Part shown: one piece after another, positions 2-30,797 of the stretch | How the letters are laid out: each line of letters begins with the position of its first letter | Numbering within the stretch: position 1 is the first letter of the stretch | NCBI GenBank assembly: GCA_001724265.1 | Contig: MEDY01000361.1 | Location: 1-46,349, forward strand | Length of the DNA stretch: 46,349 bases | Origin: Rhizaria sp. SCN 62-66 | Lineage: Eukaryota | Direction of reading: 5' to 3' | Program-made: the position numbers and the translations under genes | Notes under the pieces: generated by a model | What the model was told of the DNA's origin: nothing | Seen by the model: only the letters and a program-made list of their open reading frames with translations | Database searches by the model: none

Positions 2-76
<75 letters not shown>
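2..76 (+). repeat. (CAG)25 microsatellite encoding poly-Gln, running off the window edge
   Basis: Perfect CAG repeat read directly. Confidence 0.95.
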
Positions 77-79
<3 letters not shown>

Positions 80-292
80 GAGCTAGAGCTAGACCTAGAG
101 ACAGAAGCGGAGCTCAAGCAGCACGACCAAGAGCTGGAGCAAGAGCAAGAGAATCTGTATTACGAGCAGCAGCAGCAGTTGCTTTTGTTGGAGCAGCAAC
201 AGCTGCAGCTGCAACAGCAGCAGTTGATGTTGCAGCAACAGCAGCAACAGTTGCTTTTGAAGCAACAGCAGCGCAAGCAGGAGATGTTACAA

Positions 293-324
<32 letters not shown>

Positions 325-9219: not shown

Positions 9220-12200
9220 TTACTTCGTATTGTTGTTTTTGGTGAAGTCGTTGACACCGTAACGGCCGAACAGTGCACTCATCCTATTATGAATCACGCC
9301 TCCACCCGCATTTGCGTTCGGGCTCCACATACTGTTCGCTCGTGAGGTGCTTGCGTTTGTCTGCGTCTGCGACAGGGGCTGTTGTGACTGAGACTGAGAC
9401 AGCGACTGAGTCGGGGTGGACTTCGGACCGACTGTCGATGACTGCGACACTTGCTGAGACTGCGCCTGCGACTGGGGTGTTTGTTGCTTCTTGTTTGTCG
9501 TCATATGAGCACTCACACTCTTTGCAGCTTTACTGCTGCCGCTGCTGCTACTCATATTGCTGCTAGTATCCTCCGAGCCCGTGTTCGCATAAGTTTTGGC
9601 CTTGTTTGCGGCGATCGGCTTGAGCCCGCTAGAGCCGAACCCGAACTCTTTCAGGAAGTCCTTCACATTGATCCCTTCGCCAGAAATACCACTCTGGCTG
9701 TCTGCAGCTTTGTTCGCAGCATTCACAGGACCGGTGATAGAGGTGACCCTGAGCGCGTGGACGCGCTTCAGCAACGCATTGAAGACTTGACTTTGCTGCT
9801 GCTGCTGCTGCCCTTGCCACTGTGCCTGCGAGAGAGCGTTGTTCGCGACACTATATGCTGTTGCGACCGGCAACGACGCAAACGCACTGAGCACACCCAG
9901 GGCGTCAAGAGTACTGCCATCAACACCGTCATGAGCAATTGCGCGCACACTAGAACTCGCGTTCACGCGTGTTTTCACGCTGCTATAGACGCTCGCGGTG
10001 CTGGCAACGGCAGTGCGCGCCGAGATGACGAGCTCATCGGCCACTTTGGCCACGGTTTTGTAGTGGCAACCCATGGCTTTAACACCAAACGCGTCAAAAA
10101 CAGGCGTGATAGTGACTTTAAGCCGCTTCAAGTCACTTGTATCAGAGTAAAGAGCGCTGATGTTGTTGTACGTGCGACTGGCATAGGCGCTGAAAAGCCC
10201 ATGCACGTCCGTAATCGCGTTCACGTTTGCGTTACTGTTGCAATTGGTGCTCGCGGTGCTGTTCGGTGCACTGGCTGCGTGCGTGTCGCTGCCGAGGTGG
10301 GAAACAACCGTTGTCACGGGCTGCATAGAGGCCTCGCCAGGACGAGCACGACTGCTACTGCTGCCACGATTGGCGTTATTGCCCTGCGCTTGCTCTTCTT
10401 GCTGCTGCTGTTGCTGCTGCTGTTGTTGCTGCTGCTGCAGCTGCTGCCTGGCCTTGGCGGCAACGAACAGCCCCGCCGTGGCGGCCAGCGCCGCGCTGCT
10501 GCGGTCGAGCTCGACGACGACGGTGCGGAGCAGGACCTGCTGCTGCTGGGCCAGCACCAGCAGCCACTGGTCCACGTGGCTGCGGCGCGCCGACAGGACG
10601 GCCGCGGCCACGGCCACGGCCACGGCCGACTGGACCAGGTGCTGGGTCTCGAACGCGGCGACCTTGTCGCTCTCTCTGGGGCTTGCGGGTGGCAGGTTCG
10701 CAAAAATGACGTGACTGTGCGTCGTTTGTTTCCCCGTGTTGTTAGAGCTGGTACTGGTGATGTTGGTCGGGGTCACCGAGTCAGCGGCAACAGTAGCAGC
10801 AACAGTGGTGGCAGTGGCAGCGGCAGAAGCAGCGTACAAAGCAGTGATGGCAGCGATACTACTCTGCGGAACAATCGCAGTAGCTGCCGCGGCAGCCGCC
10901 CTCATTGCGCCACGACTCTCGCGGCTACTACTCGCAGTGCTGTCGTAGTCGCCGTCGCTGTTGCTTTTCGGAGAGGTCATGATGAGGCGCACGAGGCCCG
11001 GGGAGAGTGGCATGAGCGAGACCGCGGACTCGAGCGACGACGCCAGCGGCATCGCGGTGGGGGCGCCGGCAGAGGTCTCGGCGGGCGCGGAAGCAGCGGC
11101 GGTGATCGCGGCGGCGACGGAGGATGCGGGGATGTGAAACGAGAGCAGAGACTGGGTGAAGTTGTACGCATTTGCCATGATCTGAAACAAAAGCGCACTC
11201 ATATTCTTCCCACCGTCGTCATCGCTCATCGCCACACCGCCGGCCGCGCCGGCAGTGGCGCTGGCGTTGGCGGTGCGCACCTCGAGCCTGACGCTGCCGT
11301 CAAGGTCGGCGCACGAGACGACGCCGACGCCGAGCTTGTCGCACTGTGCGCGCCAGCGCTGCTCCTTGCTCAATACGCCGGGCAGCAGGAACGGCGTCGG
11401 CGACTGCGGCAGCGCAGTCTTGGCGACGGCGCGGCGGTAGGCGCCGACTGACTCGGCCAAGTACTTGGACTCCTCAAGGGTGGACGTCACGAGGCTGCGG
11501 AGGCGGAAGAGGCTCAGGGTGATGTTGGCGACGGCAGAGCGCACAGCGACGCCGAGGCCGCTGCCACTGCTACTATTCTTACTCTGAGAGCTCGCACTAG
11601 CATTACCACTGGTAGCATTTGATGAACTAGAGCCAGTGATGTTGCTTGTGCTCCCAGTGGCCGCACTTGCACTGGCGCTGCTGGCGCTCGAGCTCAAGCT
11701 GCTGCTGCTGCTAGACTTGCTGCTGGAGTCAGCGTTCGCACCGGCGCTGTCGTCGTTGCTTAGCGAGGCTAGCTGCTCGGTGACCGCGAGCAGGTGCATC
11801 AGCAAGGCGGGATTGAAGCTGGAGAGGGACGGCGGGGCCGAGGGCTTGAAGCTGAAGAACGAAGCCCAGGAGGCGACCAGGTCCGCGATGTTGCGGGGCG
11901 CGGGTGTGCTGGCAATGATGCGGCTGAGCTCAGGATCAGCGGCAGCAACAGCGGTAGCAGCAGCGGTAGTAGCAGCGGTAGTGGCGTCGACAGCTGAGCT
12001 GGAGTTAAAACTGCTTGAGGCAGAAGTCTTCTTGCTCTTCTTAGGCTCAGTGGTCACCGTCTTGCTCTTGCTCTTGGTCTGGTCGTTGCTGTTGTTGTTG
12101 TTGTTGCTGTTGCTGGTAGTGTGCGTGTGCGTGTGCGTGCGCGTGTTGTCGACAATGATGATGTCGCTCTCGTCACCAGCATTGGGATTCGCGCCCGCAT

Positions 12201-12971
12201 TGTTACTACTACTACTACTACTACTACTACTATTCGTGGATGTAGTTGCTTTCGCTGACTTGGCTGACTTAGACGTCGTTTTCGACTTTGCGGGAGTTGA
12301 GATTGTGGCAGGAGTCTTGTCAGCGTCCGCGTCCACAAAAGCGCGAGGACGAGTGGTGTGACGCATCTTATTGGCGTAATACGACTCCGAGAATCCGAAT
12401 GTAAGTGGGTACTTAGACAGCTCTTCCTCTTCCTTGTTGTCCACGATCCTGTCGACGAAGTAGCCCGCCACGGTCGTTTTGTCCCCGAGCCGCGCCAGCA
12501 CGGCCCTGGCGCCGACCGCACCGCTGCGGCCCCGGCCGAAGCCGACGCCGCCGTAGCTGCACGCGCCGGCCACAAACGTCACGTTGGTGCCGCCGTCAAT
12601 GTAAGCGCCTGCGGAAAGAGCGCTTGAATCGGCAGCAGGAGGCGACGTCGATGGTGCAGTGTTGTTCGTGTCGTTCGCAGCGTCAGGGTTAAAGACTATC
12701 AGTGCCCCCTTGGATTTAGCACTGGCAGTGCTGCTCTTCTTCTTCGCTGGACTCGCCCTTACGCTCGCACTCGCGCTCGCGCTCGGAGTCGCATTAACCT
12801 GACTCGCGTCCAGGTTCACCTCGTCACCGTCACCGTTGCCGTTGCCGTTGCCGTTGCTGGGCCGGTCGGTCGGGGCGACGGCAGTGCCATCAAAGCCCGG
12901 GTTCGCCACCGCTTCCGCGGGCGCCACGACCAGTTCCAGCTCAGCCCACGCCCGGCCTTGCTTGCTCACAT

Positions 12972-13002
<31 letters not shown>

Positions 13003-13598
13003 CTTGGCGTTGTCAGTGCTCGGCGAGAGCTGCATCAGCGCTTTGCCCGCGACCGGGATCGGCAGTGTAAGTGCCGTTGGTGGAGGCAGGGGGTACTTCG
13101 AGTACTTCGTGAGCAGCGCGTCAGAGATACGCTCGCTCCCACTCGGGCCGTCAGCGTCTAAGGGGGTACTTAGACGACTCTGGCGGTTCGAGGTGAAGGG
13201 CGTGGTCGCTTCGGCGGCGACCGTAAGCAGCGCCAGCACCAGCGCAGTGATGTCAGTGAGCGCGTGAGGAGCCGCGGCCGTGGCTTCGGCGGCGGTGGAC
13301 AAGTTGGCAAACGCGCCGAGTGCGGGGGCGCGTTTTGCGAGAGCAACACTGTCAACGACGCCTATTGCAGCGCTCGCAGCGGCAGTCGCAGCGGCAGCAG
13401 TTGCCGCAGCCGCGTCAGCGCTCGTCGCGGAGCCATTGCCCGCGCTGCCAGAGCCGGCGCTAGCCTTGCGGGCGTTCGCGCCGCCGTTCGCGCTGCTGTT
13501 GGGGCCGTAACTTGAGTGAAACGGCGACGCGACGGCAAACAAAGCAGCCGCCGCAGCCTTCTTGGTCACAGTGTTGCAACCACTGTTGCTGTTGTCAC

Positions 13599-13692
<94 letters not shown>

Positions 13693-16463
13693 GGCGCCGA
13701 GGCCGCCCCGGCCGCCCTTGCCCCTCCTGCCAGGCACTGAGGAGGTACTTAGACTCTGCGCCGGGGGCGAGCCGCTCTGGCCCGGCGCCGCGGCGCTCGT
13801 GCCTTCTGGCGGGGTACTTGGACTTCGTAAGGGGGCGCACGCGCCGTAGCGGGGCGTGAGGTCGGCGTGGTCGGCCGAGTCGGACGCGTACGCCGTCGCG
13901 GCTGACAGGGGGAACAAGTGAATGTACGTGTAGTGCTTCTTGGCCGCGCTGCTGCTGTTCGCGACGGCGATTGCGCCAGGGTTCGTGTTGGCACTGGCAG
14001 CGGCGTTGGCGTCGGCGTTTGTGCTAGTGCCGGAGTTGCCGTTCGTATTTGTGCTGCTGCTTGCAGGCGAGTCTGCGTTGACGGCTTTGTTATTGTTGTC
14101 GCTGTTGTTGTTGTTGTTGTTGTTGTTGATGCTGGGGGTGTTGGTCGTAGGGGACTGAGTGTAGAGCTTGTCGGTCGGCGTGAATGTAAGGGGTAGGGCA
14201 CTTACATTGGGCTCGACATCTTCGCTGACGACAAAGCCGACACTCTGGACTCGGCGATCATGGGCACTTACATCGGCGTCGTGGCCAGTCACGGAGGCGT
14301 TCACAGTCGGGCCAACAACGTCCGGGACACTTACATTGGCCTGTGACAGCGAGGTACTTACCGCGGCAGCGCTTCCGCTCACTGATGCACTCATAAACGA
14401 CTGAGTAATGCGCTCAATGGCCCTTAAACCGGCACTGGCCTTTACACCAGCGCCGATGACCTGCAAGTTGGTGCAAGAACCCTCAATGTAAGCGCCTTCA
14501 TCAGTGTAAGTGCCGTACGTCGGGTAAGGTACGTGAGCGCCGTCAACAGCATTCGAGCCAGCGTCTTTGCTGCGATTACAGTTGTCACTGTTGCTGTTGC
14601 CGTCGCCGTAGTTGGTGTTAGCGCTATTGCAGCCGTACAGCGCCCGCAGCGGAGTGACGGGCGCGAGCGAGAGCCCCAGCGCAAGCAGCACGACGTCTTC
14701 CGCGAGCGACAAGTTGCTCACAGCCAGTGCGGTCAGACAAGAAGCCACAGGGGCGGCCCTGAGACCGGCGGAGGTCCTCGCACTCGAGCCAACCGCAACA
14801 TCAGCAGCAGAGGCAGCAGGCGCAGGCGGGCTGTTCAAACGACCCGCAGAAGCAGTGCCGGTGGCAGCGGCGGCAGCGGTAGTTGGCGACGTTCCTGCAG
14901 CCGTCGTCCGCGCCCTATTGCCAGCCGCCGCCGCGGCGGCTGCAGCGGTGGCGGCTGCAGCAGCGGCAACAGCGGCGGCATGGGTACGTTTGATCGCGGA
15001 CTCGGTGTCAGAGCCCTTGGAGTAGTCTTTGTACCGCGTCAGCAGCGGCAGCGCGGCGCACAGCTCGCATGGCAGCATCTGCTGGCCGTAGCCGTGACCG
15101 CGGGCAGAGTGACCGTGGGCAGCGGCATCAGCTGCGGTAGAGCTCGAGTCAGTGCCTGCGTTGTTGTAGCTGTTTTGGTCGCCAACGGTGCTGCTGCTGC
15201 TCTTGTGAGAGTTAGAGTGCGTTTGAGCTAAGAACACAGCTGTTTTGTACACGACCTCACGAGAGCTGTCAACAACTTCAATACTCGTACTACTAACGTC
15301 GTTGTTGTGCTTGCTCGCAGCACTCTTGGACGTCTTGGACTTGGACTTCGCAGCAGCACTCGCGCTTGAGCCAGCAGCGGCACCAGCAGCAGCACCAGCA
15401 GCAGCAGTTGCACATGCGCTGGTACTTGCCTTGTCCTTGGCTGCTGAGGCAGCCGCAGCCGCCGTCTCCGCCGTCTCAACCAGCAGCGCGGCCAGCAAGC
15501 TCAGCCCGCTTGGCAGCACCAGCGGCGGCCTAACTTCCGGCGCAGACAGCAGCTGCGACGTCGCCCCCACCTCGCCGCTCTGGAGTTGCGTCTTGAGCGC
15601 AAGGTGGGGGCTGACGGAGGCGTACTTCTTGTGCTGGAACAGCGCCAGCAGCGCCTGGGCGGTCTTGTGCGCGCGCGTGATTCCCCACAGCGGCGCCATC
15701 ACCGGCACGGGAATCGGGCAGCTTGACCGAGGAAGGTATTTCTTGTACAAACTACCGAGCGGAACCTTGTTTTTGACTGGGAAAAGCTCATGTTCAGGCA
15801 GCAGCGGTGTGGCGCGCACGAACACGCGCGGGTCTAAGTGTCCCTTAGAGCTGCTGTCTAAATGGGTCTTGTCTGAGTAAGTGGCTTCGTAATCGGGATC
15901 AGGGTCGCTGAAAAAGGCAAGCGACTTGTACTCCTTCGGCTGACTGAGGCTGCGGCTGAGGCGCTCGCTGAAGCTGTAGCTGTCGCTCTCGGGAGCGCTT
16001 CGGTTGCCGTTGTAAAGCAGGGCTTCTGTTTGCGGCAGGATCGTTTGCGTCGCGAAGTTGAGCCGCCACGACCCAGACTGGCCCTTGCTGCGGCCGTAGG
16101 GCTGTAGGTTGCACGACTTCAGCTGCGCCTCTAACTGCGACTGCGGCTGCGCCCGCTGCTGTTGCTGTTGCTGTTTGAAGTGGTTCACCAGAGCGAACGA
16201 CTTGCGTGACTGCGCGCTGTACTGGTTGATGAACGGGCAGTCGAGCAGCGAGTCGGTCGCCACAAGCGCTCGCGTCGCAGCGCCCCCACCGCCGCCGCCG
16301 CCGTCCGCTCCCGCAGGCGCGGCCGTTTGCACCAGAGTCTGCGAGACGAAGGGGAAGACCTTGACGCTGTAGCGCGTGACAGAGCTCGTCCCAAATGCAT
16401 CGCCGCCGAGGGACTGGATGTTCGCCACAACACCGCCCAGGCCGCTGCTGCTGGCGCTGTTTC

Positions 16464-16509
<46 letters not shown>

Positions 16510-19500
16510 GCTAGAACTCGAGCTAGAGTTGGTGCTTGCGGTTTTGACGCGCGTCGCAGGCGCGCTGATCTCCACGACATCGTCGTCGTCACTGCGCAGA
16601 GCTTCGTCAGGGCTCGCCGAGCTAGTATTATTAGCACGCACATTGCTCTTGTTGCTATTGCGGTCATCGTCGTCCATGTCCCTGTCATTGTCGACGTCGT
16701 TGCCAGCCGCAGCCTCGCTCTGGCTCTGGCTCAGGTAAATGGGTTCGGCCTGGCTCTGACCTGCGCTCTGGCTCAGACTATGAATGGCGCTCTGGCCCAG
16801 ACTCTGAGCGCGGCTCAAGCTCTGCGACTTGCTGGCACTCTTGTTGTTCGCACTCTTCGCCTTAGCAGCAGCAGCGGCAGCGGCGTGTGCAGCAGCGGCT
16901 GTCTTACCTTTGCCCTTGCCATTACTATTACTCCCATTCGCTTCCGCCGCCGCCGCAGCAGCAGCAGCAGCAACAGGAGCAGCAGTTTGACAGCGTGCGT
17001 GGCTGAGGCAGGCCCGCACGCTCTGCGACCCTTCGGTGTCGGCCACGGCCATTGCGGCCCCCACCACGGAGCCCGCGGCGGCTCGCGCCACCGCCGCGAG
17101 CATTGGCACGTGCACGCTGGACTTAAACAGCAGCGCGAGGAAGTGGCGGCGGCGCGCGGCGGCGGCGGCGGCGGCCGTGGCGGCCGCGTGGCGGGCCCGC
17201 GCGCGCCGCTCGGCTTCGGCGGCCTCTTCCTCCGCCGCGGCGGCCACGGCGGCGGCGGCCACAGCGGCGGCGGCCACGGCGGCGGGGGCGGCCGCAGTCG
17301 CAGTCGCGTCGGCGTTTCTACCGCTGCCGCTGCCGCTACTGCTGGAGCTGCTGCAGTGCGTCAGTGCGGGCAGCGGCAGCGAGTTCTGGCTGAAGCCGGC
17401 GCCGGTCGAGCCGCTGCCGCCACCAGTGGGATGCGAGTGATACTGCAGGGACGGAAGGTTGCGGCCGTGCTGGTGGTGACCGGACACCGCAGAGAGGGGC
17501 TCCAGCGGGGGCGGGGCGTCTGCGTCATCGTCGTCACCGAAAAAGCCGCCGCTGGCGACGACAGCGGTCGGAGTGAACCCGTCGAAACCAAGGCCAGCCG
17601 ATACAGTGCGAGAGGTTTTGGGGATGACGAGAACGAGGGCCTTGCTGGCGCTCTCAGGCGCGCTGGCGTTGCTTTGCGACCCCGCCTTCGCTGGCGAAAA
17701 CGCAAACGGATGCGCGTTGCCGCCGACCGCGTTGTTCGTATCCCCGGCGTTCGGGAGACTTACAAGTGCCGTCGCCGTCGCCGACGACGATGACGACAAG
17801 CGGACCGGTGATTCGTGGCTGCCGCGCGCGCTGCCGATCGCGCGGCTCGCCGCGCTGTCCGAGACGGTCACTACGCCCACAGTCACGACGTCATCGTCCC
17901 GCTCCCCGCGTTCTCCGCGTTCTCCCCGCGCGCGGTGCCGCGTCGGCGTCGCCGGCGCCGCGGAGGTCCGGATCGCGCCACCCTCCTTCTTCACGCGCAC
18001 CGCCGGGCCCGTGCCCGAGGCTGCGGCTGCGGCGGCTGCGGCGGCGGCGGCGGGCGAGATGGCGCCCGACTGCGTGTAGACGTTGTTGTGCGATGAGCAC
18101 ACTGGCCGAGGCTGGTTGGCGGCGGCGGTGGCAGCGGCGGCGGCGGCCGCGGCGGCAGCGGCCCGGTTGCTGACGCTGCCGTTGGCGTTCGGGCGAGGGT
18201 TGACAGGATTCGTGTTGGCGCCCTGGAAGGTGTTAGAGTTGACTGGCATGTTGGCGAAAGGGTCTTTATAGCCCGGGATACTGAGATCCGCCGGCAAGGG
18301 GAAGGCTAAGGGTGCTGGGGCGGGGGAAGTCAAATCGTATCCAGCAGTGAGACACATATTAGAGACTGACTGCGCGGCCAGGGCACTTAAGCGATCTAAG
18401 TACGCCTCGGGGTCTGAGGGGACACTTGCATTACTCGCAGCAGAGCTCGAACGAGAGCTGAGGCTACTGCTCGTCTTGCTCCTGTCAGCAACCGTGAGAA
18501 CTCCGTTTCCGATGACGCCACGAGCGTTACTGGCGACGGCGCTGCTGACGGCGCTGCTGACGGCGCTGCTGTTGCTGTAGACTCCGTTAGCGGTGCTGCC
18601 AGCGTTGACGGCAGCGATGGACTTGTAGAGCTCGCCCGCAGCTTGAGTCAGTCCCCCCGCGCCGGATTCAAGCACGAAGCTCGCCGCAGCCGCCGTCGCG
18701 ACCACGGCGGCGGCCGAGGTGGGTGTAAGTACCCACGCCACGAGGGCGTCTAAGTACCTCCGGGCCCTGGCGCGGGCGTTGAGCGCGGCGCCGAGCTCGA
18801 TCACAGTGTGGTAGGTAAAGACGCCCAGTTCGCGGGCCTCAGTCTCGCGAGCGTTCTGTGCCGCTTTCGGCGCGTTGCTACCGCCGCCGGGGGCGGTACT
18901 AAGACGGTGTAAGTACACGGTCGTGGCCGCAGTGCGCGCGGCAGAGATGATGACGTAGTCATTCGGATTGAGGCCGGCGTAGAGAAGAGACTTCTCAGGA
19001 TTCGCGCTCTTTTTGCTCTTCTTCGCACGAGCGACATCAGTGCCAGCGCCGTTCGTGGCAGCTGCAGCAGCTGTAGCAGCAGGAGTTGCGGTGACGTCGT
19101 CAGTCATCGCAACGCCTCCGGCACTCTCACTCTCAGCGCCTGCGGCAGAAGTCGGGCTACTGCTACTGCTGCTGCTGCTGTTGTTGTAGCCAGAGTCGAG
19201 GCCCAAAAAAGCCATCACGCGTAGTTCAACCTCCAAGTTCGCCTCTTTTTCACCGGCACTTACGCTTGCAGCAGCAGCAGTCGCATTCGCGGTGATCTTG
19301 CTCGCGTCGCCGCTATTCGCAGTCGTCAGGTCGACGCTGCTGCCGGCGTCGTTGCCGTGGCCACTCTTGCTGGCAATCATAGCCGCCTCCGCCGCCAGCA
19401 GCGCGCTGACCACGCCTTTGCCCCACAGCAGCGTCACCGCCGCGGCGGTCTCGGCCTCGGCCTGCCGCACCGCGGCGGCAGCCAGCGGCAGCAGCACCGA

Positions 19501-22500
19501 CAGCGGCAGCGGCAGCGGCAGAGAGGCGTCAGGGGCGATGGGCAAAGGACACATCAGCATCGGCAACTGATCGAGTATATCGCTCGCACTTGCATTCGCA
19601 CTCGTTTTATCACTGGCAATAGAGCTGCTGCTGCTCGGGGTTGAGTTCTTGTCAGCTTTGCCGTTGTTGGTCACACTAGCGCTATTGTTCATCCTAGTGA
19701 CGGAGTCTGACGAGAGCGGTTTGATCGCCTCGCGGGCCTCTGCTGGAGACATTTGGTACATTTCCTCGTAGCCCGGCGCACATGCAACTCCACTCACCAT
19801 ATCGACGACAATGCTGCTGTTGCTGCTGCCGACACGGGAGCTGGAGCGAGGGCTCGAAGCCTCAGAGCCACCAGACGCCTTGGCGCTCGGCCCATTTGTT
19901 CTCGCGCCAGCACTAGCGTGCGCGTGAGCGTTGCGCGAGGGATGCTGCTGGATGCGGACGACGGGCGCTGACAGCGGCGGCGGCGCCGTCAGAAACAGCG
20001 CCGGGATCGTCGGCGGCGGCAGCCACAGGTCAACGGGCTTGGTGTAGATCAACACGCCGGGCTTGCGCAGGAAGCCGGGTCGGACGCGCGGCACGGCGGC
20101 GCTCACATCGGCGTCCGCGTCAGTATGGGGGAGGCGGGGAACGCGGTCGCGGTCGCCGTCGGAGTCGGAGCCGGAGTCCGACTCGGTTTCAGACGACAGC
20201 AGCGCCGAGTGCGGACGCGAGCGCGAGCGTGCGTGTCCAGCCGCTGGCGCTGCCGCCGCCGCCGCAGCAGCAGTTGCGCTGCTGTCCGCAGAGGCGCCGG
20301 CGCCGGCGCCGTTGTAGGTCAGCTGCAGAGCTTTCTGCTGGTCGCGCTGCTGCAGTTTGAACAGCAGCCGCTGCCGCCGCCGCCGCTGCCGCCACTCGCT
20401 GTCGGAGTCGCTGTCACTGCCGACCGCCTCCCCGCCCGCCCGCGCCCGCGTCCGCGCGCGCGCCCGCGCGCGCGCTCCGGCGCTGTCGTCGCTGTCGTCA
20501 GCGATGCTCTCGCCGTCGTCGGAGTTGCTGCCGTTTCTGGAGTTGTTTTGTGAGTGCTTGTTCAGGTAGTGGGTGACGAGTTTGCTCGTGCCGGCAGCAC
20601 GCTCGCTCGCGCGGGTCTGCCGGCGGCGTAACTTGCGCGCGCGGCTTAGCTTCTGGCTCTCGTCGTCGCTGGCACCATCGCGGCCACGACGGCCACGTTC
20701 ACGGTCTCGCCTACGGTCACGGTCCCGGTCCCGGTCCCGGTCCCGGTCCCGGTCCCGGTCACGATGACGGTCACGGTAACCGTGTTTGTCTCTTTTGTCC
20801 TTCTTGCTTGCTTTGTCTTTCTTCTTGTGACTGTGAGCGGCAGAGTGACCGTGAGCAGAGCGACCGTGGGCTGAGCTCCTCTACACAGTCGTGCGAGACT
20901 GTGAATGTGACCGTGAGCGCGCCTACGACTGCGTGCCCGAGGAGGTGCTTCCGCGTCCCGCCTAACTGCTGCTTGCACCGTGGTTGCCGCCGTCATCGTC
21001 GTCGTCAAAGTCGTCTGTGATGATGCGGCGGCGGCGGACAACGGGGCCGACAACATCATCACCGTCGTCATTAGATTTTGCGCCAGCACCCGCACCGGCC
21101 CTGCTCTTGCTCTTGCTGCTGCTGCCGCTACGACCGCTTTTCTTCGACTTGCTCCGAGCACGAACAATGTCACTGTCGTCGTCATCATCGCCGCTGTTGT
21201 CGGAAAGCACACGCTTCAGCCTCCGCGAGCTGCCGCCACTGCTGTGCGTCTTCTGCCTCGCAGTCCTCGCCGTCGCCTTGCCCGTGGAGCCTTCTTCGTC
21301 AGAGACGAACTCGAAGCTGTCGGAGCTCGTCTCCGAGGAGCTGGCGCTGTCGCTCTCGCTGTCGCTGTAGCTGCTCGAGCCCGTCTCGCTGTCGTCGCTG
21401 CTGCTCGAGGTGCCGGACCGCGAGCCGTCGTGGTAATTATCGTCGCCGTCGCCGCCGTCGGAGACCACAAACCCTTCTAAGTCCTCCTCCTGGCGGGCCT
21501 GCGACAGGTCTAAATACCCCTTAGCTGCGCCACCCTTAGCCGACTTGGGGATCGCGCTCACCGTCACCTGCTGCTTCTTCTTCTGCGGCTGCGGGCTCAG
21601 CTGTTGCTGAGTTTTGATCTCCTTTTGCCGCTGCAACTGTGCAGTCGCGTGCGCCCAAAAACGGCCCGCGCGCTCGTTGCCGCCGCCGCTGCCACTGCCG
21701 CTGCCGCTGCTGAGGCTCCCGCTGTCGTTGGCGTTCCAAGCAGAGCCGGAGTGCGCGGTGGCTGCGTTCGCGTGAGCGTTGGAGTTGGAGTTAGCGTGGC
21801 TTGAGGAAGACGAGGATGCAGCAGCGACAGCGGCGTGCCAGGCGTTGTTGGCGGCTTGGTTCAAGTTGCTGCCGCTGCCACTGGCACTGACGGTAGGTTT
21901 GCTCTTAGCTTTACTGCTGCTCACGCTGGGGCCAGAGACAGTCGTAGCAGCGGTGTTAGATTTGATATTCCGACGATCGTCATCGCCGTTGTTGGAGTCG
22001 CGGTCGCGGTTGCGCAGCGGCTGCTTGCCGCCCGCGCTCTTGTTGCCGCGCTGCAGTTGCAACTGCGGCTGCAACAGCGACAGCGACAGCGACTCAGCGG
22101 CTGCGGCTGCATTGGGGTCAAGCTGCGTGTCGCTGTTGCGCCAGACGTCGCCGCCCATCACCACGCCCGTCACCCAGCCCGTCGCCGCGGGCGTGGGGCG
22201 GAAGAACGCACTCGAGCTCGAACTGGCGCTGCTGCTGGCGGAGGCGGCAACGGGAGGGCGGGTGGGGCTAGGGGGGTAGGAGGCGTAGGCTGTGGGCAGG
22301 ATAGGAGGGCCCGCGGGGGGCCGCGGCCGGTCGTCGTCGGTGTCGGTGCTCGAGGAGTCGGAGTCGGAGTCGGAGCTGGTGCTGGAGCTGCCAGAGCCGG
22401 AGCCGGAGCCGGAGCCAGAGCTGGAGTCAGAGCTGGTCGAGTCGGATTCGGTGTCCGCAGCGGCTGCAGCGGCGGCGGAGTTAGCTGTTCTGGCGCGGGG

Positions 22501-22629
22501 CGGCGTGCGTGCGGTTTTAGACGCGCGGGGCGTAACGAGCGTAACGTCAGAATCGTTGTCAGAATCGAGCGATATAGCGCGCGACGCGGGCAAAGTGCCA
22601 CGGCGCGGGGTCCTCGGCTGCGAGCTCAT
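9220..22629 (-). CDS. Giant (~4469 aa) low-complexity Ala/Ser/Asn-rich protein of unknown function with 3 in-frame TAG codons (20962-20964, 20923-20925, 20881-20883) read as sense
   Basis: ORFs 20962..22689 and 9220..20106 share one frame. Manual translation of the gap finds only three TAGs and coherent low-complexity coding (RDRDRD, KKKDK). First ATG at 22629 (MSSQPRTPRR); ends in TAA at 9220. No AT-rich intron in the gap. An acceptor-like T-tract+CAG near 22669 may indicate a 5' intron upstream. Confidence 0.75.
13600..13692 (-). repeat. (AAC)~31 microsatellite encoding poly-Asn in the giant gene
   Basis: Perfect GTT repeat on the + strand. Confidence 0.95.
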
Positions 22630-23117
22630 GGCGCCAAGGTCCGTGCGATTTAGAGGTAGTGCGTGCTGCTGGTACAAACAAAAACACAAAAATATAATAC
22701 AAAAGTCAGTATAAATTTACGAAAAGTAGATAAAAGCAGTAACAACGGTTGTTTGAAGCCACTGCAGTGTCATCTCAGTCAGCTGAATCGTGGCGCGCCA
22801 ACTCGCCACCGCTGCGAAAAAATGTGGCCACACTTTGCCGCCCTCAAGCATGATCTTATTCATTGATCTCACTGCACTTCTATCGTAAAATTGTGACAGC
22901 GCTTCGTAAATAAACGTGTATTATAACATTTTTACATGAGTATTTAATTATATCTCTTACAAGAGTTGTATATCTTGTCATCCCACTCCATTTCTCTCGG
23001 TCCCTCCCCGAGTGAAGATTTGGCTTTCGCGTTCTCTCGCTTGCTCCAACTCCCTCACTCAGTTCCCGCTTCGGTCTTCACGCCAGCCTGTGCCCGGCGC
23101 ACGGTGTGCGCTTTGCC
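22630..23117. promoter_or_regulatory. Short divergent (head-to-head) intergenic region, probable bidirectional promoter
   Basis: 488 bp with AT-rich stretches between divergent ATGs at 22629(-) and 23118(+). Contains TGGCGCGCCA (22791..22800) and TTTGCCGC (22834..22841), which resemble E2F sites. Confidence 0.45.
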
Positions 23118-26100
23118 ATGGCCGACTCTCCCGGCGGCGCTGACAGCGACCACCTGTTCTCCCAGTCGCTCTCGCAGTGCCCTGCCGACTTGTTCCTGGC
23201 TACGTGCAACGAAACCATCAGCAGCGGCTTCCGCGGCGGCATCGACAGCGACAGCGACGGGGGCGGTTGTGGCGACGACGCACACAGTATTGATGACCTT
23301 GGCAGCCAAGCCGACAGCGACGCAGGGCTCAGCGGGCTCGACCTCTCGCCCTATGCCCAAATGGCAGCTACCGCCGCCGCCGCCGCTGCCGCTGCCGCCG
23401 CCGCTGCCGCTGGAACAGCCGAGGCTGATGCTGATGCTGAGACGGAGGTTGATTCCTAGACTGACGACGGCGCGAGTCTGGGCTCTGACGCCCGCGTCGC
23501 CGTTGCCGGCCCCCCGCTGCCTCCAACTCGCAACAGCAACAGCTACAACAATCACAGCTTCACTCTAAGCAACAGCAGTTCTTTTATTGACATTGCTGGT
23601 GATGACGATAGCAGTCAGCTGCAGTCACCGTTGCAGTCTCAATCTCAATCGCAATTGCAATTGCAGTCGCAGTCTTCGTCTGTGATATTTGCGTTGCCAT
23701 CAAGCGATCGCAGTGATGCCCTCAGCGGCCCTAACATTAACCTTGTCGCAAACCCCGGTGGTCACCCCGCTGGTCACCCTGCTCGTCGCGACGCTCGCGG
23801 CGCCACTGGCATTGGCACGGGCACTGCCGATGGCAATATCCGAAGCCACGCTCGCGAGAGTACAAGTGGCTTTAACGGCTACTCCGACGGCTACGACGCA
23901 TCCGAGAGTCAAGCTCTCTTCACCCAGTCACAGGTGTTGTCTCAGTCTCAGCCACAGTCTCAGTTGCAGTCTCAGTCTCAGTTGCAGCTGCAGCCGCAGC
24001 CACAGCAATTGCAACGACAGCAGTTTGCGCCTCGGCAGTTCAAACGCAGTGCCTTTTCGGCTTTCAACACGAGCTACGACGCTAAGGCTCTCCTGGACGA
24101 CCTGAGCCACGATGACGACGAGCTGGAGCAAGAGCAGCAGCAGCGGCATCAGCAGTCTGTGGCCGAGTCGTATCTCGCAAAAGAGCACGGTTACTCTTCC
24201 TCCGGCGGCGAAGGCTCTTACAGCAACAGGGGCACATTTGCGAGCAGCCTCCGTCCATCGATGTTTGATGGCAGCGGGCATCACACGGACCTCGAGCTGA
24301 GCAACGATGGCGTTGGCATTACCAACCCTCGCGACGATGATGACGGCGACGACGACGAGAGTGATGTTATTACTCTCAGTGACACTGCGAGTGTCAACGA
24401 GATCACTTCGACACCGAAACCGACGAACAAGCGCGGCAGCATTGCGGTTCCTGTTGCTGCTACCGATGATGATGACAACGACAACAACAACCTGTTCAGT
24501 CAATCAACCGTTGATAGTAATGCTTTCTTCTTTGACAGGCTGAGGTCTGCCGCCACGAAGCAAGCTGCAGCGCCCGCGACCTCTCCTGCCCACGGTCACC
24601 CCGGCAAGGCCGCCTCTCCTGCCCACGGTCGCTCTGGCACCGCCGTGCGCGCGAATGACACTGCTGATGGAGGCTACGATGTGAGCGCGGGAGAGAAGTC
24701 TGCTCTTGCAAGTCCCCGCCAGGCTAATTTTAGCACGAGCAATCGCGTCCGTAGCGTTTTGGATTCAAGCCCATCGACCGCCGTTTCGGTGGCTTCAGTC
24801 AAAGACAAGATCATGCGTGACCTCACGAGTTCACGCAAGAGCAACAGCTCTACCAACAGCAATAGCTCGCGAAATGCGTTTACTGGCGGCGTTTTCGCCG
24901 CTGCTAACGATGATAACGACGAGATTGCGGTCGGAGACGACACCAAGTCAAGCCGTGCTAGGAGGCAGTTCAACTTTTCGAAGCTGCGGCGGCTTAACTT
25001 TCCCTCGTCTTACTTCGTGCGTCAACAAGAGATCCACGCGTTTCAAGAGCTAATTCTAGAGCAGCAGCAAAAGCGTGAGCAACAACAACAGCAACAACAA
25101 CAACGGCAGCAGCAGCCGAAGCAGCCGAAGCAGGAGCAAGAGGAAGAGGAAGAGGAAGACTCTCACGACCGAGAGCAAGAGCAAGAACGATCGCAGCTCC
25201 AGGCGCAGTTGCAGCTGAAGGTGTAGCAGCTGTGCCAGCGACAGAAGTTAAGCCGCGCCCAGCTGCTGCTGGTGTGCGAGCACGTGCGCGTGTTCGTCTC
25301 GAAGGCGTCGCTTCTGCAGTCGCTTACTCTTGTGCTTGCGCTCGCGAGCAACACGGTCAGTGCCGAACCAGAGGGCGTTCGCAGTGCGAGTAGTCTTCTT
25401 GACGACATTGACGGCATCACTGTGACACTGCAGGTGCCGCTTGAAGCAACAACGGCGGCAGCAGCAGCAAAGGGGGAGACATCAGTATCAGCGACAAGGA
25501 GTGAGCAAAAACAACACGAGTCGAAGTTGTCGGCGTCAATTGTTACCTTAACTCTGACTCAATGGCTGTGCTTTGTGGCGAAAACTATTGCAACTAGCAT
25601 ATCAACAACAACAACATCAACAGCTAGCTCAGAAAGTAAAAGCAGCAGCGGTTCTTCAAGCTCGGTGACTCATTATGCAAATTTCCTTGGTTTAAGCGTT
25701 AATTCAAGCGTGCAAGAGCTGATCTCTCACTTTACGCAGTCGTTGTCATCGCATCTAAGCCCTTCTTTAGAGCTTAGCCAGCAGAACACCGGCGGAGACA
25801 CTGTTCTCAGCACGCTCTCTCTGCTGCACGCGTTGACCGTGCTGCCCTGCTCCGTTCTCGGCCTTGTCGCGGCGCTAGCGCTGGCGTCCCGGCCATTCCC
25901 GTTCCCCCAAGCTCCCCGTTACACGAGCGCGATCCCGAGCGCAAGCGCAACCGGCAGCAAAATCAGCTCTCGCAAGAACACGAAGGCTCACTTTAGTAGC
26001 AGCGGCAGCGACATGAGTGGTTGCGACAACGACGACGACGATGACCGCGGATCCGCTCCCGCGTCCGTGTCTGTGCTGTCATTCTTCCCCTCCGTCGCGG

Positions 26101-28325
26101 CAGAGCCGCCGTTCTCGCAGCTGCAGCCCGCGCTGCTGGCGCTGCCGCATGCTGCGCCCGTGGCGGCGCCCTGGACGCGGCACTACGACCTGCAGGCGTG
26201 GCTGTACAGGCTGCTGATGCAACTCGCCGTTTCCGACCAGCAGGGCGAGCTGCACGACGACATGACGTGGGCGCGCACTCACGTCGCCGCAAACGCTGCC
26301 ACTGGCACCCCCAGCCGCAACAACAGCAGCAGCAGCAGCAGTGGCGCTGGTGGTGGCGGCGGCAGCGCAAAGGGCGCTTAGATCCGGGCGTTAAGGACCG
26401 ATGTTGGCCAATCGCCGTTTCGGCTTCACTTAATCACCGGCAGCACGAGCAGCAACAGCAATTGCATTAGCAAGAGCAGTAGCAGCAGTGTTAATGGCGG
26501 ACCTGGTCCTAGTGGCGGTGGTGCGAACGGCGAGTCAACCCTGAAGCGACAGCCGCTGCCGGCTGTGTACGTGGGCAGTTTCGACGAAGCGTACCGGCTG
26601 CGCGCTCTAAGGGGGTACTTAGACGTCGAGAAAGACTTACGACGCCAATTTTAGCAAAGCTCCGACTTCGGGATGGCTGAGTCTGATGTAGGTAAGAGCG
26701 AGACTGAAACAGCGAATGTAAGTAGCTCCGCGTTGTGTGTAAGTGCGTTCACAGGAGTTGCTGGCGCGGTCAGCGTAAGTCCTGAGTGCGATGTAAGTGA
26801 GCGTTTGTGCGATATTATTCTCCACTACTCGACATTTCACTTTAAACAGCCGCCAAACAGCGCTTGCACCGACTCAAACATAACTGTGAACAGCAACAGC
26901 AGCAGCATCAGAAGCAACAGCAGCAATTTTGCGAGCGATAACACGACACAAGGTGATACTTTTTGCAGTCGCCTTAAGTACTTGGACTCAACGGCGTTGC
27001 CTAACCACGCCGATTTCAAGTACTTAAAGAAGCTCACCCGCGAGCTCGCTTACCGCAGCCCAGGACTATCAAGGATGAGCGAGTACGCGCTTTCCGTCGA
27101 GGGTTACGAGCATTTGCAGCCGATCCCGACGCCGAGCTCCACTGCCGCCGCATACTCCGGGTTTTCAGACGCAAGCTCTCTCTCTAGCTCTCTCTTGTCT
27201 GGTTCAGCACGTGGCGGCTTCGCTGCTGCTTCTGTCCCTTTCCCCCCTGCCGAGCCCACCGTTGGCGCCAACGCCACCGTCGCCGACACCGTCTTCCCCT
27301 CCACTAGCCGGGCCTTTGGCTCCCCGGCGCAGGCCCCGCCGCCGACGCGTCTCGCGGCGGCCGCGGCCCTGCTCGTTATGCTCTCGCGCGCGCTTGCGGG
27401 GCCGCCGCCGGGGGTGACCATGTGCTGGACCCCCGGGCGGCCGCTCACGTTCTCAGCGGTTAAGGGCGGGGCGGCAAGCAAGAGCAAGAGTGCAAGTGCC
27501 AGGTTTTTCGCGAATGTGACCAAGAGTGCGAGCTCGTCCAGTGCCAGTGCTCACCTGAGCGCTCCTGCTCTCAACGCGAGTGCGAGTCTCTCTCTGGCGA
27601 GCATGACTGGGGCAACCCCTGCCCCATCTGCTGCGGTCAAAGACGAGGCTGAGTGCGTCGGCGGGGACGATCTGACGCACGCGACCGCGTTGCTGCTCAA
27701 GTACTGCGCGTTTGACGCGCTCACAAACACTGCGCTCGGGCTCAACTTTCCAAACTTACTCGCGAAGGCACTTAAATCGACAACCGCAGGAACATCTTCG
27801 AAGTCAAGGCCGAATAGTAACGCGAAGGCAGTCATTCCAAGCTCTGGCCAGCAGATGGCTGTTGCTAATGTCTATGAGTTCAACAGTCAGAGCAACAATG
27901 CCGCAAGCAACGTCCGCAGTAAGGGCAACTCTAGTAAGAATAGTAGGAGTTCTTTGAAAGCGATCAATAGTGATACTGCCCACGCCAGTGCTAACATTGC
28001 GAGGTTTTTCACCACAGTCAGGCGTGATACGCAGCCACTAACACAAGAAGCAAAAAAAACTGTGCCAATGCTAGCTGACGCAATATCCGCTTCTGATAGC
28101 GTCGCTGCTGCTACTGGCTTGGACGACAAGAAAGCGATTCTCGACTTTTCGTTGACCCTGTCACAGTAGCAGTCACTATCCTTGGCCCAGCCACCGCTAA
28201 AGTCGCAGCATTCTGGACTCTCACTCTCCCAGTCGCTGTCCCAGTCGCTGTCCCAGTCGCTGTCCCAGTCGCGTTCGTCGCAGGGCCGGGGCCGGCGGCA
28301 ACAAAAGAAGGACCAGCAACAACAG

Positions 28326-28357
<32 letters not shown>

Positions 28358-30797
28358 GCAGTAGCAACAGCAGCTAAAGGAGAGCCAGGAGCAGCAGCAA
28401 TGCAGTCGGCTCACGCGGCGTAAGTCTGCTGCTCTTGCATCTGCCGCTCACGATGCTGCGGCTGCGGCCGACGAGGCTCATGGTCACTCTGCTCACGGTC
28501 TTGGCCGCAGCCCAAGTCACACGCAAACTCAACAAGGAAGTTATAGTCCTAATAACGCGAGGCAGTCCCACGCGGACGCGAGGGTGACTGGCTCTCAGTG
28601 CAGCTCTGGAGCCATTAAAAAGACATTTAGTCTCGTTGATTTGGGCGATGACTCTGGCTCTGGCTATGACGACAGCAAGAACACTGACGAGAACAACATT
28701 GTCACAAATCCGGATGTCAAGCTGTCGCAGTCCCAGCCACATACGCAACCGCAGACATTCGCACAGCTGCAGCGTTTATTCCAGTCGCAAGCACGGTCAT
28801 CCTTGCAGTCCGAGAACGAGCATCAGCCCAACGCTGACGCTCTGACTGATGTCGATAACGACGACACGTTTGCGTCACAGCCGCCTCCTTTACAGCCGCT
28901 CACACAACACCAACAGCAGCGTCAGGAGCAAGCGCTAGACCAAGACCAGGAGCGAAACGAAGAGGAGTCGAAGCTGCATCAGCGTCGAACACAGCAACGG
29001 CTTCAAAAGCAGCTGCAGCTGACTCTGGCGCAGCAGTAGTCGCAACTGCTCTCGCAGTCCCAGTCGCTCCCGCAGTCCCGGCCGCAGTCGCAGTCTATGT
29101 TGCGATCACTGCTGCAGTCGCAGTCTCAGCTGCGGTTGCACTCGCAGTCGCCGTCGCAGTCTCAGCTGCAGTCTCAGTTGCAGTCGCAGGGGGCAGGGTT
29201 GGTGACGCCTCGAGTGAAGCGCCGTCGGCCCGCGGTGCCTCCCGGCAGACGCATCAATGCTCGCAACGCTGCGACGCGTCGCGGCCGCGGCAGTGTTTAC
29301 CGTGACGATGACGTCGACGACGACGACGACAGCGATGATGACGGCGCAGACACTCAGCTTAGTCAAACGCCGGTCACCGGGCGTAAGAACAGCAAGAGTT
29401 CGAAGGCGAAGCGAAAGACCACAGAAAAGGCGACGGCACCATCTTCACCAGCTGGAACATCAGCGCCAGTTGTTGCAACTCCTGCTTCCCAAACTGCCGC
29501 TGCTGATGCCGCTGCTGGTGCTGAAGCAGCGAATGCCAACGTCGGTGCGAGCGAGACGCCGCCAGCCACTAAACGGCGCCAGACGAAAGTCAAGCCGCCT
29601 ACGCCGAACCACGGCGCGTTGCTGAAGTTTCTCACGCATACGCCGTCGCACACGGCAGTCGCAGCGTTTGCAGCAACTCCGCACGCAAGGGAAGACATGA
29701 GCGACTGCGACAGCGGCAGCCAGAGCACTCACTGTGCTGCTGTGACCCCGAGCGCTGCACGTGTCGCCGCGACTGCGAGTTAGCGTGTTCCTCGTGGCGG
29801 TGCTGCTGCGAACGACTCCGGCGCGCGCTATAGCAATCACTCGAACTCGTACACGTGTAGTCAGAGCTCACAGCTGCAGTCCCAGTCCCAGCAAGGACCT
29901 ATCTTCAAACTCAGCCGCCAAAATGCTCTGACGAACATGACGCATTCGGCTAATCCGACGTCTAAGAAGCTCAACAGCAGCAGCGACAAGAGCGATAACA
30001 TTCGGAGCTTTGAAGATGACGGTGATTTTGACAATGACTACGACGACTACGACGGGAACACAGTCACTCACAACAACGCTTCTGCGAGCTCTGGTCAAAA
30101 TGACAGCAGCAGTAACAACAATAACAAGGGCATTAACTCCCAATCCCAGTTGCAATCACAGTCACAGGTGCGCTCACAGCCACAATCCCAGTTTGAACAA
30201 TCGCAAGCAGTATTCCACCAAGCGTCATCGCTCGACCTAGGCTTGTTCTATAACTTTGCCAACGACACCAAAGACTCGCACTCTCTGGGAGTCGTCGCCT
30301 CACGCTCCAGCTCGCTTCCCGCTGCGGCTTTAGACGTCAGCTCTCGCCCCGGCACAGAATCTAGGTCTGTCTCCAACTCTATTGCAGCTGCACCGTCGTC
30401 GAATCACGGCCAGCATCAGCAACAACTGCAGCAAAAGTTGCAATCCCAGGAGCAGCAACATCAATAGCAGAGCTTTGGCGGCGGCCGTATTTTGCGGCGA
30501 ACTGTGGCGTTTTGCATTTCAGACAGCCAGGAACAGCAGCAGCATCAACAGGGGCACATCCAGGAAAATCGCGATCACGTCATCGTTCCGTGCGATGCTT
30601 CAACTGTCTTGCGCGTGTCGAGTGGCCCCAGGAGTAGCACTGTCCCCCGCGTGAGTCCGGGCACAAACGCAGCCGCGGATACTCATAGCAGTGTTGCGAC
30701 AAGTTCGAGCGTACCGCATATTACGAGTGATGCCTTAAGTCGATGCCAGTCGATGGCTTTATTCCCTTTCACCCCGAGAGACAACACGAAGCAGTGA
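23118..30797 (+). CDS. ~2559-aa Ser-Gln (SQ/TQ)-rich low-complexity protein of unknown function with 9 in-frame TAG codons read as sense
   Basis: ORFs 23106..23459, 23631..25226, 25272..26381, 26673..28169, 28182..28364, 28584..29039, 29097..29783, 29937..30467 and 30492..30797 all lie in one frame. They are separated only by TAG at 23457, 25224, 26379, 26652, 28167, 28362, 29037, 29781 and 30465. ATG at 23118 (MADSPGG); final TGA at 30795-30797 is followed by AT-rich DNA. Confidence 0.8.

Follow-up and report, generated by a model that had tools for sequence, protein, structure and literature searches.

Background

Few nuclear genetic codes give UAG and UAA different meanings. In the available text of the two sources on which we draw, reassignment of UAG alone was first reported for the rhizarian exLh, in which the codon stands for leucine, and for the fornicate Iotanema spirale, whose nuclear code reads UAG as glutamine and keeps UAA and UGA as stops (PMC5304391). 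Later cases comprise Scotinosphaera (serine), a phyllopharyngean lineage from TARA data (leucine) and the pair Hartmannula sinica and Trochilia petrani (glutamine), whose variant corresponds to NCBI table 15 (PMC11687900). The lineages named for such codes are thus one rhizarian, Iotanema, Scotinosphaera and three phyllopharyngean ciliate lineages (PMC5304391, PMC11687900), and in exLh UAG has been argued to be a rare, disfavoured codon that accumulates under weak selection (PMC5304391). Here we examine a stretch of 46,349 nucleotides (contig MEDY01000361.1, hereafter the window), in which the minus-strand gene g3 is crossed by three closely spaced TAG codons and its divergent neighbour g4 by nine more. 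An earlier reading of the window, made from the sequence only, had proposed that the TAGs of g3 are read through, joining two open reading frames (ORFs) into one very long protein. We conclude that decoding of UAG as a sense codon is the best explanation of this structure, with a probability that we put at roughly 0.85.

Results

One open frame across three clustered TAG codons

Gene g3 spans positions 9220..22629 of the minus strand and comprises 4469 codons if TAG is translated as sense. Its start codon is taken to be the first ATG of the open frame (22627..22629), whose methionine is the twenty-first residue counted from the opening of the frame at 22689; its terminator is a TAA (9220..9222). 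Translated from 22689 to 9220, the frame contains exactly three internal stops before this TAA, and all three are TAG: the first at codon 556 (20962..20964, context AGT TAG GCG), the second at codon 569 (20923..20925, TCG TAG GCG) and the third at codon 583 (20881..20883, GTG TAG AGG). The 258 open codons that follow the third (20107..20880) include no ATG, GTG or TTG, the earliest such codon being a GTG at 20106, so that ribosomes must come from upstream to translate them. The standard code would split the frame into a 575-amino-acid ORF (20962..22689) and a 3628-amino-acid ORF. The sequence-only reading had listed the same three TAGs as the sole stops between the ATG at 22629 and the TAA at 9220, together with their contexts and the start-less stretch, and translation bears it out on all of these points. 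Its further claim that the two ORFs form a protein of about 4469 residues is supported by the coding score of the frame, the absence of an intron signal and a contig from a polyA library, each described below.

Continuity of the frame is argued by the stop counts of the alternative frames, by codon usage and by base composition on the two sides of the cluster. The other two sense frames of g3 hold 104 and 196 stops, against three in frame. The GC content of g3 by codon position is 0.59/0.59/0.74, and its value at third positions (GC3) is 0.78 before the TAG cluster and 0.77 over the 258 codons that follow, a start-less segment in which the three positions give 0.72/0.59/0.77. Codon usage was scored as a log-likelihood in windows of 40 codons, with the remaining large ORFs and the distant part of g3 as training set. 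With this score, frame 0 ranked first of the three frames in nearly all windows from codon 1 to 1280, in most windows of the segment 20107-20880 and in all four windows over the cluster, where its values (9.2, 4.5, 2.9 and 9.0) were among the lowest of the series. Chief among the exceptions is the 40-codon window from codon 621 onwards, in which frame +1 scores higher; it lies in a hexamer repeat just downstream of the cluster (20689..20777, minus strand; period 6, 14.8 copies) that encodes an (RD)n tract. The g3 frame is thus unbroken, and looks coding, on either side of the TAG cluster.

The predicted product consists mostly of poly-Ser, Ala, Asn and Gln sequence, with the (RD)n repeat and a basic tract of RD/RS-like composition immediately after the cluster. 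It contains no Pfam family. Residues 1-1200, searched among 1.84 billion representatives, returned only three weak, low-complexity matches (E about 3e-4), and the C-terminal 2000 residues gave no usable match in the Atlas search. We read the product as a lineage-specific, largely disordered protein, which to judge by its composition is possibly nuclear. An AT-rich stretch (22635-22785) lies just upstream of the ATG. Within the gene, a near-perfect array of 37 trinucleotide copies (13584-13693, minus strand; plus-strand unit TGT) encodes a long asparagine run.

TAG is the only in-frame stop codon of the large genes

The divergent neighbour g4 (23118..30797, plus strand) comprises 2559 codons, ends with TGA, and is separated from g3 by an AT-rich intergenic region of 488 nt (22630..23117). 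Its nine in-frame TAGs, which are scattered along the gene, have their first bases at 23457, 25224, 26379, 26652, 28167, 28362, 29037, 29781 and 30465, and they make g4 the strongest witness to the variant code within the window. Taken together, the four large ORFs of the window (g1 to g4, 9646 codons) contain 12 TAG, no TAA and no TGA in frame, whereas their two other sense frames sum to 149 TAG, 168 TAA and 359 TGA; by our own arithmetic, the probability that 12 of 12 in-frame stops would be TAG at these off-frame proportions is about 1e-8. The contrast is sharpest in g4, where TAG occurs nine times in frame and nine times in frame +1, while TAA falls from 19 to 0 and TGA from 35 to 0. TAG has thus experienced no counter-selection in the g4 frame, unlike TAA and TGA.

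Terminators show the complementary pattern. If the ORFs related to superoxide dismutase (SOD) are counted as two multi-exon genes, there are six genes in the window, five of which end with TAA, one with TGA and none with TAG. At the level of the code, therefore, UAG occurs in frame in two genes and terminates none, and UAA and UGA appear only as terminators. The proposal that g3 adds a second gene and a second strand in favour of UAG as sense is supported by the exclusive occurrence of TAG in frame and by its absence from the six terminators.

Use of the codon differs between genes. UAG makes up about 1.7% of the presumed glutamine codons. Gene g4 has a GC3 of 0.64, a CAG:CAA ratio of 152:77 and nine TAGs beside its 229 Gln codons; g1 has a GC3 of 0.73, a CAG:CAA ratio of 234:45 and no TAG beside 279 Gln codons. 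This contrast indicates that TAG use is uneven between genes and tracks weak codon bias, and it fits a rare, mildly disfavoured sense codon that gathers where selection is weak.

The TAG codons recur in contigs from other samples

The window was compared with contigs from two DNA runs (X2 and X3, whose pieces are identical and which may be a single data set filed twice), from a polyA-selected activated-sludge metatranscriptome (X5) and from a further data set, X4. Another DNA run, X1, may be the source of the window, and runs X6-X9 match no more than a small part of it. Positions 20731-21489, covering all three g3 TAGs, show no difference in the X2/X3 DNA contigs, so the codons are not an assembly error of one sample. 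Eight of the nine g4 TAGs likewise lie in X2 DNA contigs with zero differences, the one at 28362 being in none of the pieces listed.

In the polyA library, a contig covering 20902-21202 carries the first and second g3 TAGs unchanged and without gap or joint. It departs from the window at three positions (21043, 21081 and 21145), none of them at a TAG, and appears to derive from a strain roughly 1% divergent. Another X5 contig matches the window exactly across the g4 TAG at 30465, and a third (22495-22683) extends 54 nt upstream of the g3 ATG.

Eighteen variants are listed within g3, between codons 395 and 1097 and hence on both sides of the cluster. Ten of these are synonymous and 11 fall at third positions, a pattern that serves as supporting evidence only, since some of the variant contigs may be paralogous or foreign repeats. 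The single variant listed in g4 is synonymous. In addition, 12 gapped letters separate an X4 strain-variant contig from the window over 21204-22258, where g3 encodes its Ser/Gly/Asp-rich N-terminal part. If they form a single gap, its length is divisible by three, which would fit a repeat-length polymorphism in a translated region.

Glutamine as the probable residue

The residue was approached through the neighbours of the TAG codons. In g4, six of the nine TAGs adjoin CAG or CAA (permutation p = 5.5e-4). The rate of adjoining CAG/CAA, compared across residue classes, is highest for glutamine itself (0.34), followed by Glu (0.26), Ser (0.21) and Leu (0.18), from which we calculated likelihood ratios in favour of glutamine of about 3.5 over Glu, 10 over Ser and 24 over Leu. 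The TAG at 28362 stands inside a pure glutamine run (CAG CAG CAG TAG CAA CAG CAG), one transition away from CAG. If UAG is sense, glutamine is therefore its probable meaning, as judged from codon neighbourhood. The assignment to glutamine made in the sequence-only reading is plausible to the same degree: the g4 context speaks for it, and context is all that it rests on.

That UAG is sense but specifies another residue (Glu, Leu, Ser, Lys, Tyr or Trp) is possible, yet less likely. The g3 TAGs are set in Ser/Arg-rich rather than Gln-rich sequence, and in the available parts of the sources UAG is known elsewhere as Leu, Ser or Glu (PMC5304391, PMC11687900, PMC12153298). On the other side stand the g4 neighbour statistics, which favour glutamine over Glu, Ser and Leu, and the position of the TAG at 28362 within its CAG/CAA run.

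Clustering of the TAG codons and the valve idea

Three TAGs within 28 of the 4469 codons of g3 are improbable under uniform random placement (p = 1.0e-4), and so, to a lesser extent, is the finding of any three of the 12 TAGs this close within the 9646 codons of the four large ORFs (p = 5.2e-3). This degree of clustering is real, though short of overwhelming. Units of 39-42 nt, each opening with one of these TAGs, resemble one another weakly (z = 3.1, 3.0 and 2.0 against shuffles), and Tandem Repeats Finder reported no repeat of about 40 nt at the cluster; an old duplication of a TAG-bearing unit is a possible origin, as far as this similarity goes.

The sequence-only reading had offered the cluster as a translational valve yielding a short, 555-residue form. 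In such a scheme UAG would be leaky or ambiguous, and the cluster would release most ribosomes after about 555-582 residues, giving an acidic, Ser-rich protein, with a minority continuing to a rare 4469-residue form. We consider this improbable. The clustering itself agrees with it, as do the bases that follow the three TAGs, which are always purines (G, G and A); a purine after a stop codon favours termination in standard eukaryotes. Beyond these two features the valve found no support of its own at the cluster. TAG is also rare and unevenly used, a pattern which, in the available text on exLh, was taken as inefficient decoding (PMC5304391). However, g4 can be made only if nine TAGs are read through, so that efficiency per codon must be high and three TAGs would cost only a modest share of ribosomes; TAG terminates none of the six genes; and RNA around the cluster folds no better than its shuffles (z = 0.06).

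Quite improbable, in our estimate, is a broader version of the scheme, in which a lineage that is neither ciliate nor fornicate would have reassigned UAG alone independently and would decode it incompletely, the cluster acting as a programmed attenuator. The product of about 555 residues would then be abundant and the 4469-residue one rare, TAG density would set protein output, and the nine TAGs of g4 against none in g1 would arise from regulation through suppressor-tRNA levels.

Standard-code alternatives

A standard code, with g3 and g4 decaying or g3 consisting of two separate genes, and with the TAGs as recent nonsense mutations (for example CAG to TAG), is very unlikely. It draws on the low complexity of both TAG-bearing genes, for which the portions searched returned no homologue, and on the CAG/CAA-rich context of six of the nine g4 TAGs, where C-to-T changes yield TAG. 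Yet such changes would also be expected to turn CAA into TAA, and with 77 CAA and 152 CAG codons in g4, zero TAA among nine has a probability of about 0.025 (our own arithmetic). A pseudogene is expected to accumulate mixed lesions, with frameshifts and all three stops; here only TAG occurs, and reading continues in frame through 4469 and 2559 codons, 7028 in total with no frameshift, TAA or TGA. Moreover, the 258 start-less codons and the further 3628 open codons demand translation from upstream, synonymous changes are over-represented among the variants (10 of 18), and the TAGs are shared with the roughly 1%-divergent strain of the polyA library.

Introns of this genome and the possibility of splicing at the cluster

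Eight AT-rich valleys in the SOD-like genes served as reference introns, with ends placed for six. All eight begin with a donor of the form GTA[ACT]G[TC], and the sequences at the exon-intron joint are ACC/GTACGT, GAG/GTATGT, CAG/GTACGT (twice), ACC/GTACGT, GAG/GTACGT, CAG/GTAAGT and CAG/GTACGC. On the minus strand they start at 43723, 41625, 39784, 39379, 36634, 34571, 32663 and 32294. The six with placed ends measure 179-210 nt. GC content falls to about 36-45% in the valleys, from about 60% in exons; the valleys also carry CTAAC/CTGAC branch-like motifs and end in YAG. Such a signature should help in binning contigs of this organism and in calling its genes. One ORF (39614..41623) could be extended by reading a TAG as glutamine; we rejected the extension as an artefact, since that TAG lies inside an AT-rich intron valley (41405-41641) and is not a further sense TAG.

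No AT-rich valley occurs between 13704 and 22635, and codons 1-556 of g3 contain no donor matching GTA[ACT]G[TC] at all six positions. Two X4 contigs, however, depart from the window at 20875, directly after an AG and six bases past the third TAG on the coding strand, with unrelated sequence beyond. The 30 letters past this break are absent from the whole window, even at up to three mismatches, and so cannot be an upstream exon of g3. The break likely reflects another locus or organism that shares a GACCGT-type repeat, and candidates for the foreign part are a strain variant, a paralogous repeat locus and a chimeric contig; the hexamer-repeat bin (20689..20777) reaches a depth of 874.6 in X4, with abundant unrelated contigs matching it. 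An intron removing the cluster, which the sequence-only reading had named as grounds for abandoning its claim, was sought by its signals, and none of these was found. That a spliceosomal intron removes 20881-20964 and leaves a mature mRNA free of TAG is hardly credible: 86 in-frame GT..AG spans of up to 400 nt would excise the cluster (the shortest measuring 96 nt, 20966-20871, with donor GTTAGG and 64% GC), and the X4 contigs do diverge after an AG, but no candidate donor fits the form seen in eight of eight real introns, the 25 shortest candidates have 59-65% GC, unlike the real valleys, the X5 contig 20902-21202 is unspliced over all candidate donors between 20966 and 21095, the letters past the X4 break supply no upstream exon, and the nine scattered TAGs of g4 would each require an intron of their own.

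Neighbouring genes and the source organism

The six genes of the window lie on alternating strands. The large ORFs have 56-69% GC in 2-kb bins, and introns and intergenic regions are AT-rich. Gene g1 (2-5881, plus strand) is open at the 5' end of the window and rich in long poly-Q tracts; it also contains two GCA arrays, (GCA)26 at 1-78 and an imperfect one with about 139 copies at 1741-2160.

The only recognisable domains of the window, according to Pfam, are Cu/Zn-SOD-like. ORFs between 31790 and 44716 were joined by alignment to a locus of another metagenome (L001) into two multi-exon genes, both on the minus strand and both ending with TAA: gene A (44716 to 38880) and its tandem paralogue, gene B (37648 to 31790). 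Each encodes several such domains and a Cys-rich, hydrophobic C-terminus, and the N-termini appear, from their sequence, to be signal-peptide-like. L001 belongs to a different organism and encodes, with no intron, 1337 amino acids with several SOD-like domains at 29% identity; it has no in-frame TAG and is of no help on the code. Its homologues include a hypothetical protein of Capsaspora and proteins of Bigelowiella, at 27-28% identity, too distant to place the organism. The homologue search with g6 matched only g6 itself and a paralogue.

Sequence of the window recurs in bioreactor, wastewater and activated-sludge metagenomes of several studies. The spliceosomal introns and the polyA-library contigs point to a eukaryote, and we take the source to be, most plausibly, the nuclear genome of a microbial eukaryote that is uncultured, GC-rich and intron-bearing. 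No relative was found among the prokaryotic genome contigs scanned. A giant virus was considered and is unlikely, no relative of g6 having been found in viral contigs. The GC content, the contiguous stretch with six genes and the 179-210-nt introns look unlike what we take to be typical of ciliate macronuclear DNA.

Termination in the window has a peculiarity of its own. GC-rich genomes usually prefer TGA or TAG as terminator. Here, despite a GC3 of 0.64-0.74 in the four large ORFs, TAA ends five of the six genes; this predominance resembles the UAA dominance reported in other UAG-reassigned lineages.

Discussion

Points weighing against the sense reading

Several observations weigh against UAG as a sense codon, or against glutamine as its meaning. 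All 12 TAGs are confined to g3 and g4, adjacent, lineage-specific genes of low complexity, and there is no TAG in g1 despite its 279 Gln codons, in g2 or in the six long SOD-like ORFs counted, so that usage is very uneven. Countable terminators number only six, a small sample. The window contains no tRNA gene and no Rfam family. The X5 contigs have low depth, come from a library that may contain DNA and show presence only, and the third g3 TAG lies outside the RNA-library pieces listed. The two X4 contigs that leave the window at 20875 belong on this side as well. So does the clustering, at p = 1e-4 and 5e-3, since unit similarity with z of about 3 explains it weakly. With regard to the residue, none of the three g3 TAGs adjoins a Gln codon, which leaves g3 uninformative. 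Residues 690-1500 of g4 had no homologue among proteins of 1407-4479 amino acids, the only lengths searched, and no orthologue of g3 was found with the two portions searched (residues 1-1200 and the C-terminal 2000).

Proposed mechanism

Under the reading that we favour, UAG would have passed from stop to sense, most likely glutamine, with UAA and UGA kept as terminators. It would be decoded by a tRNA with anticodon CUA, and eRF1 would no longer recognise it. The three TAGs of g3 would then be translated as any other codon, making 22629..9220 a single gene. UAG would accumulate where codon bias is weak, as in g4 and a locally weak stretch of g3, and the cluster would be a local accident, arising from weak constraint or from an old duplication of a roughly 40-nt TAG-bearing unit, rather than a device.

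Implications

If true, the window would provide one more independent case, from a GC-rich, intron-bearing environmental eukaryote, for the question of how UAG becomes uncoupled from UAA. Gene callers that apply the standard code fragment such genes, cutting g3 into its 575- and 3628-residue ORFs and breaking g4 at nine points, and thereby distort the protein catalogues obtained from wastewater metagenomes. The TAG cluster itself is of modest consequence, a curiosity within an otherwise ordinary use of a variant code.

Comparison with known systems

Programmed readthrough of the UAG-CAR-YYA type occurs in viruses and in some cellular genes. The window shares with it that five of the nine g4 TAGs are followed by CAG or CAA, and the valve described above would likewise produce an N-terminal and an extended product. 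However, readthrough involves a single leaky stop at the end of a complete ORF, assisted by a stimulatory 3' context or structure, whereas here three and nine TAGs lie inside ORFs, those of g3 are followed by GCG, GCG and AGG, and no stimulatory structure was found (fold z = 0.06).

Condylostoma, karyorelicts and Blastocrithidia resemble this locus in translating a standard stop codon inside genes. In the descriptions available, their codon also terminates genes, whereas none of six genes ends with TAG here, a small sample.

Closer to the window are the lineages in which UAG alone is reassigned. As here, exLh, the TARA phyllopharyngean metagenome-assembled genomes and Scotinosphaera keep UAA, but their residue is leucine, or serine in Scotinosphaera, and context in the window favours glutamine. 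The available text on exLh reports under-use of UAG in highly expressed genes (PMC5304391), comparable with the uneven use of TAG described here.

Iotanema is closer still, with only UAG reassigned, UAA as the main terminator, UAG never a terminator in the genes examined and glutamine as the residue concluded. Its tRNA-Gln(CUA) was predicted and, in the part of the source available, not seen (PMC5304391), and the corresponding tRNA is likewise postulated here. The scale of the evidence differs: 204 in-frame UAGs from 126 genes, at conserved Gln positions, in Iotanema (PMC5304391), against 12 TAGs in two genes. The organisms differ as well, Iotanema being an endobiotic anaerobic flagellate studied through its transcriptome and the window a GC-rich (about 60%) genomic contig recurring in wastewater and bioreactor metagenomes.

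A UAG-only code in a eukaryote of wastewater or activated sludge was not found described in the papers searched, within the search terms used. The same variant as proposed here is that of Hartmannula and Trochilia, recognised from genome data alone and, in the available text, with no suppressor tRNA found (PMC11687900). The phyllopharyngean class to which they belong has 27.4-53.6% GC (PMC11687900), against 56-69% in the large ORFs of the window. Reassignment of UAG alone is therefore rare but already known, and the window is probably a further case.

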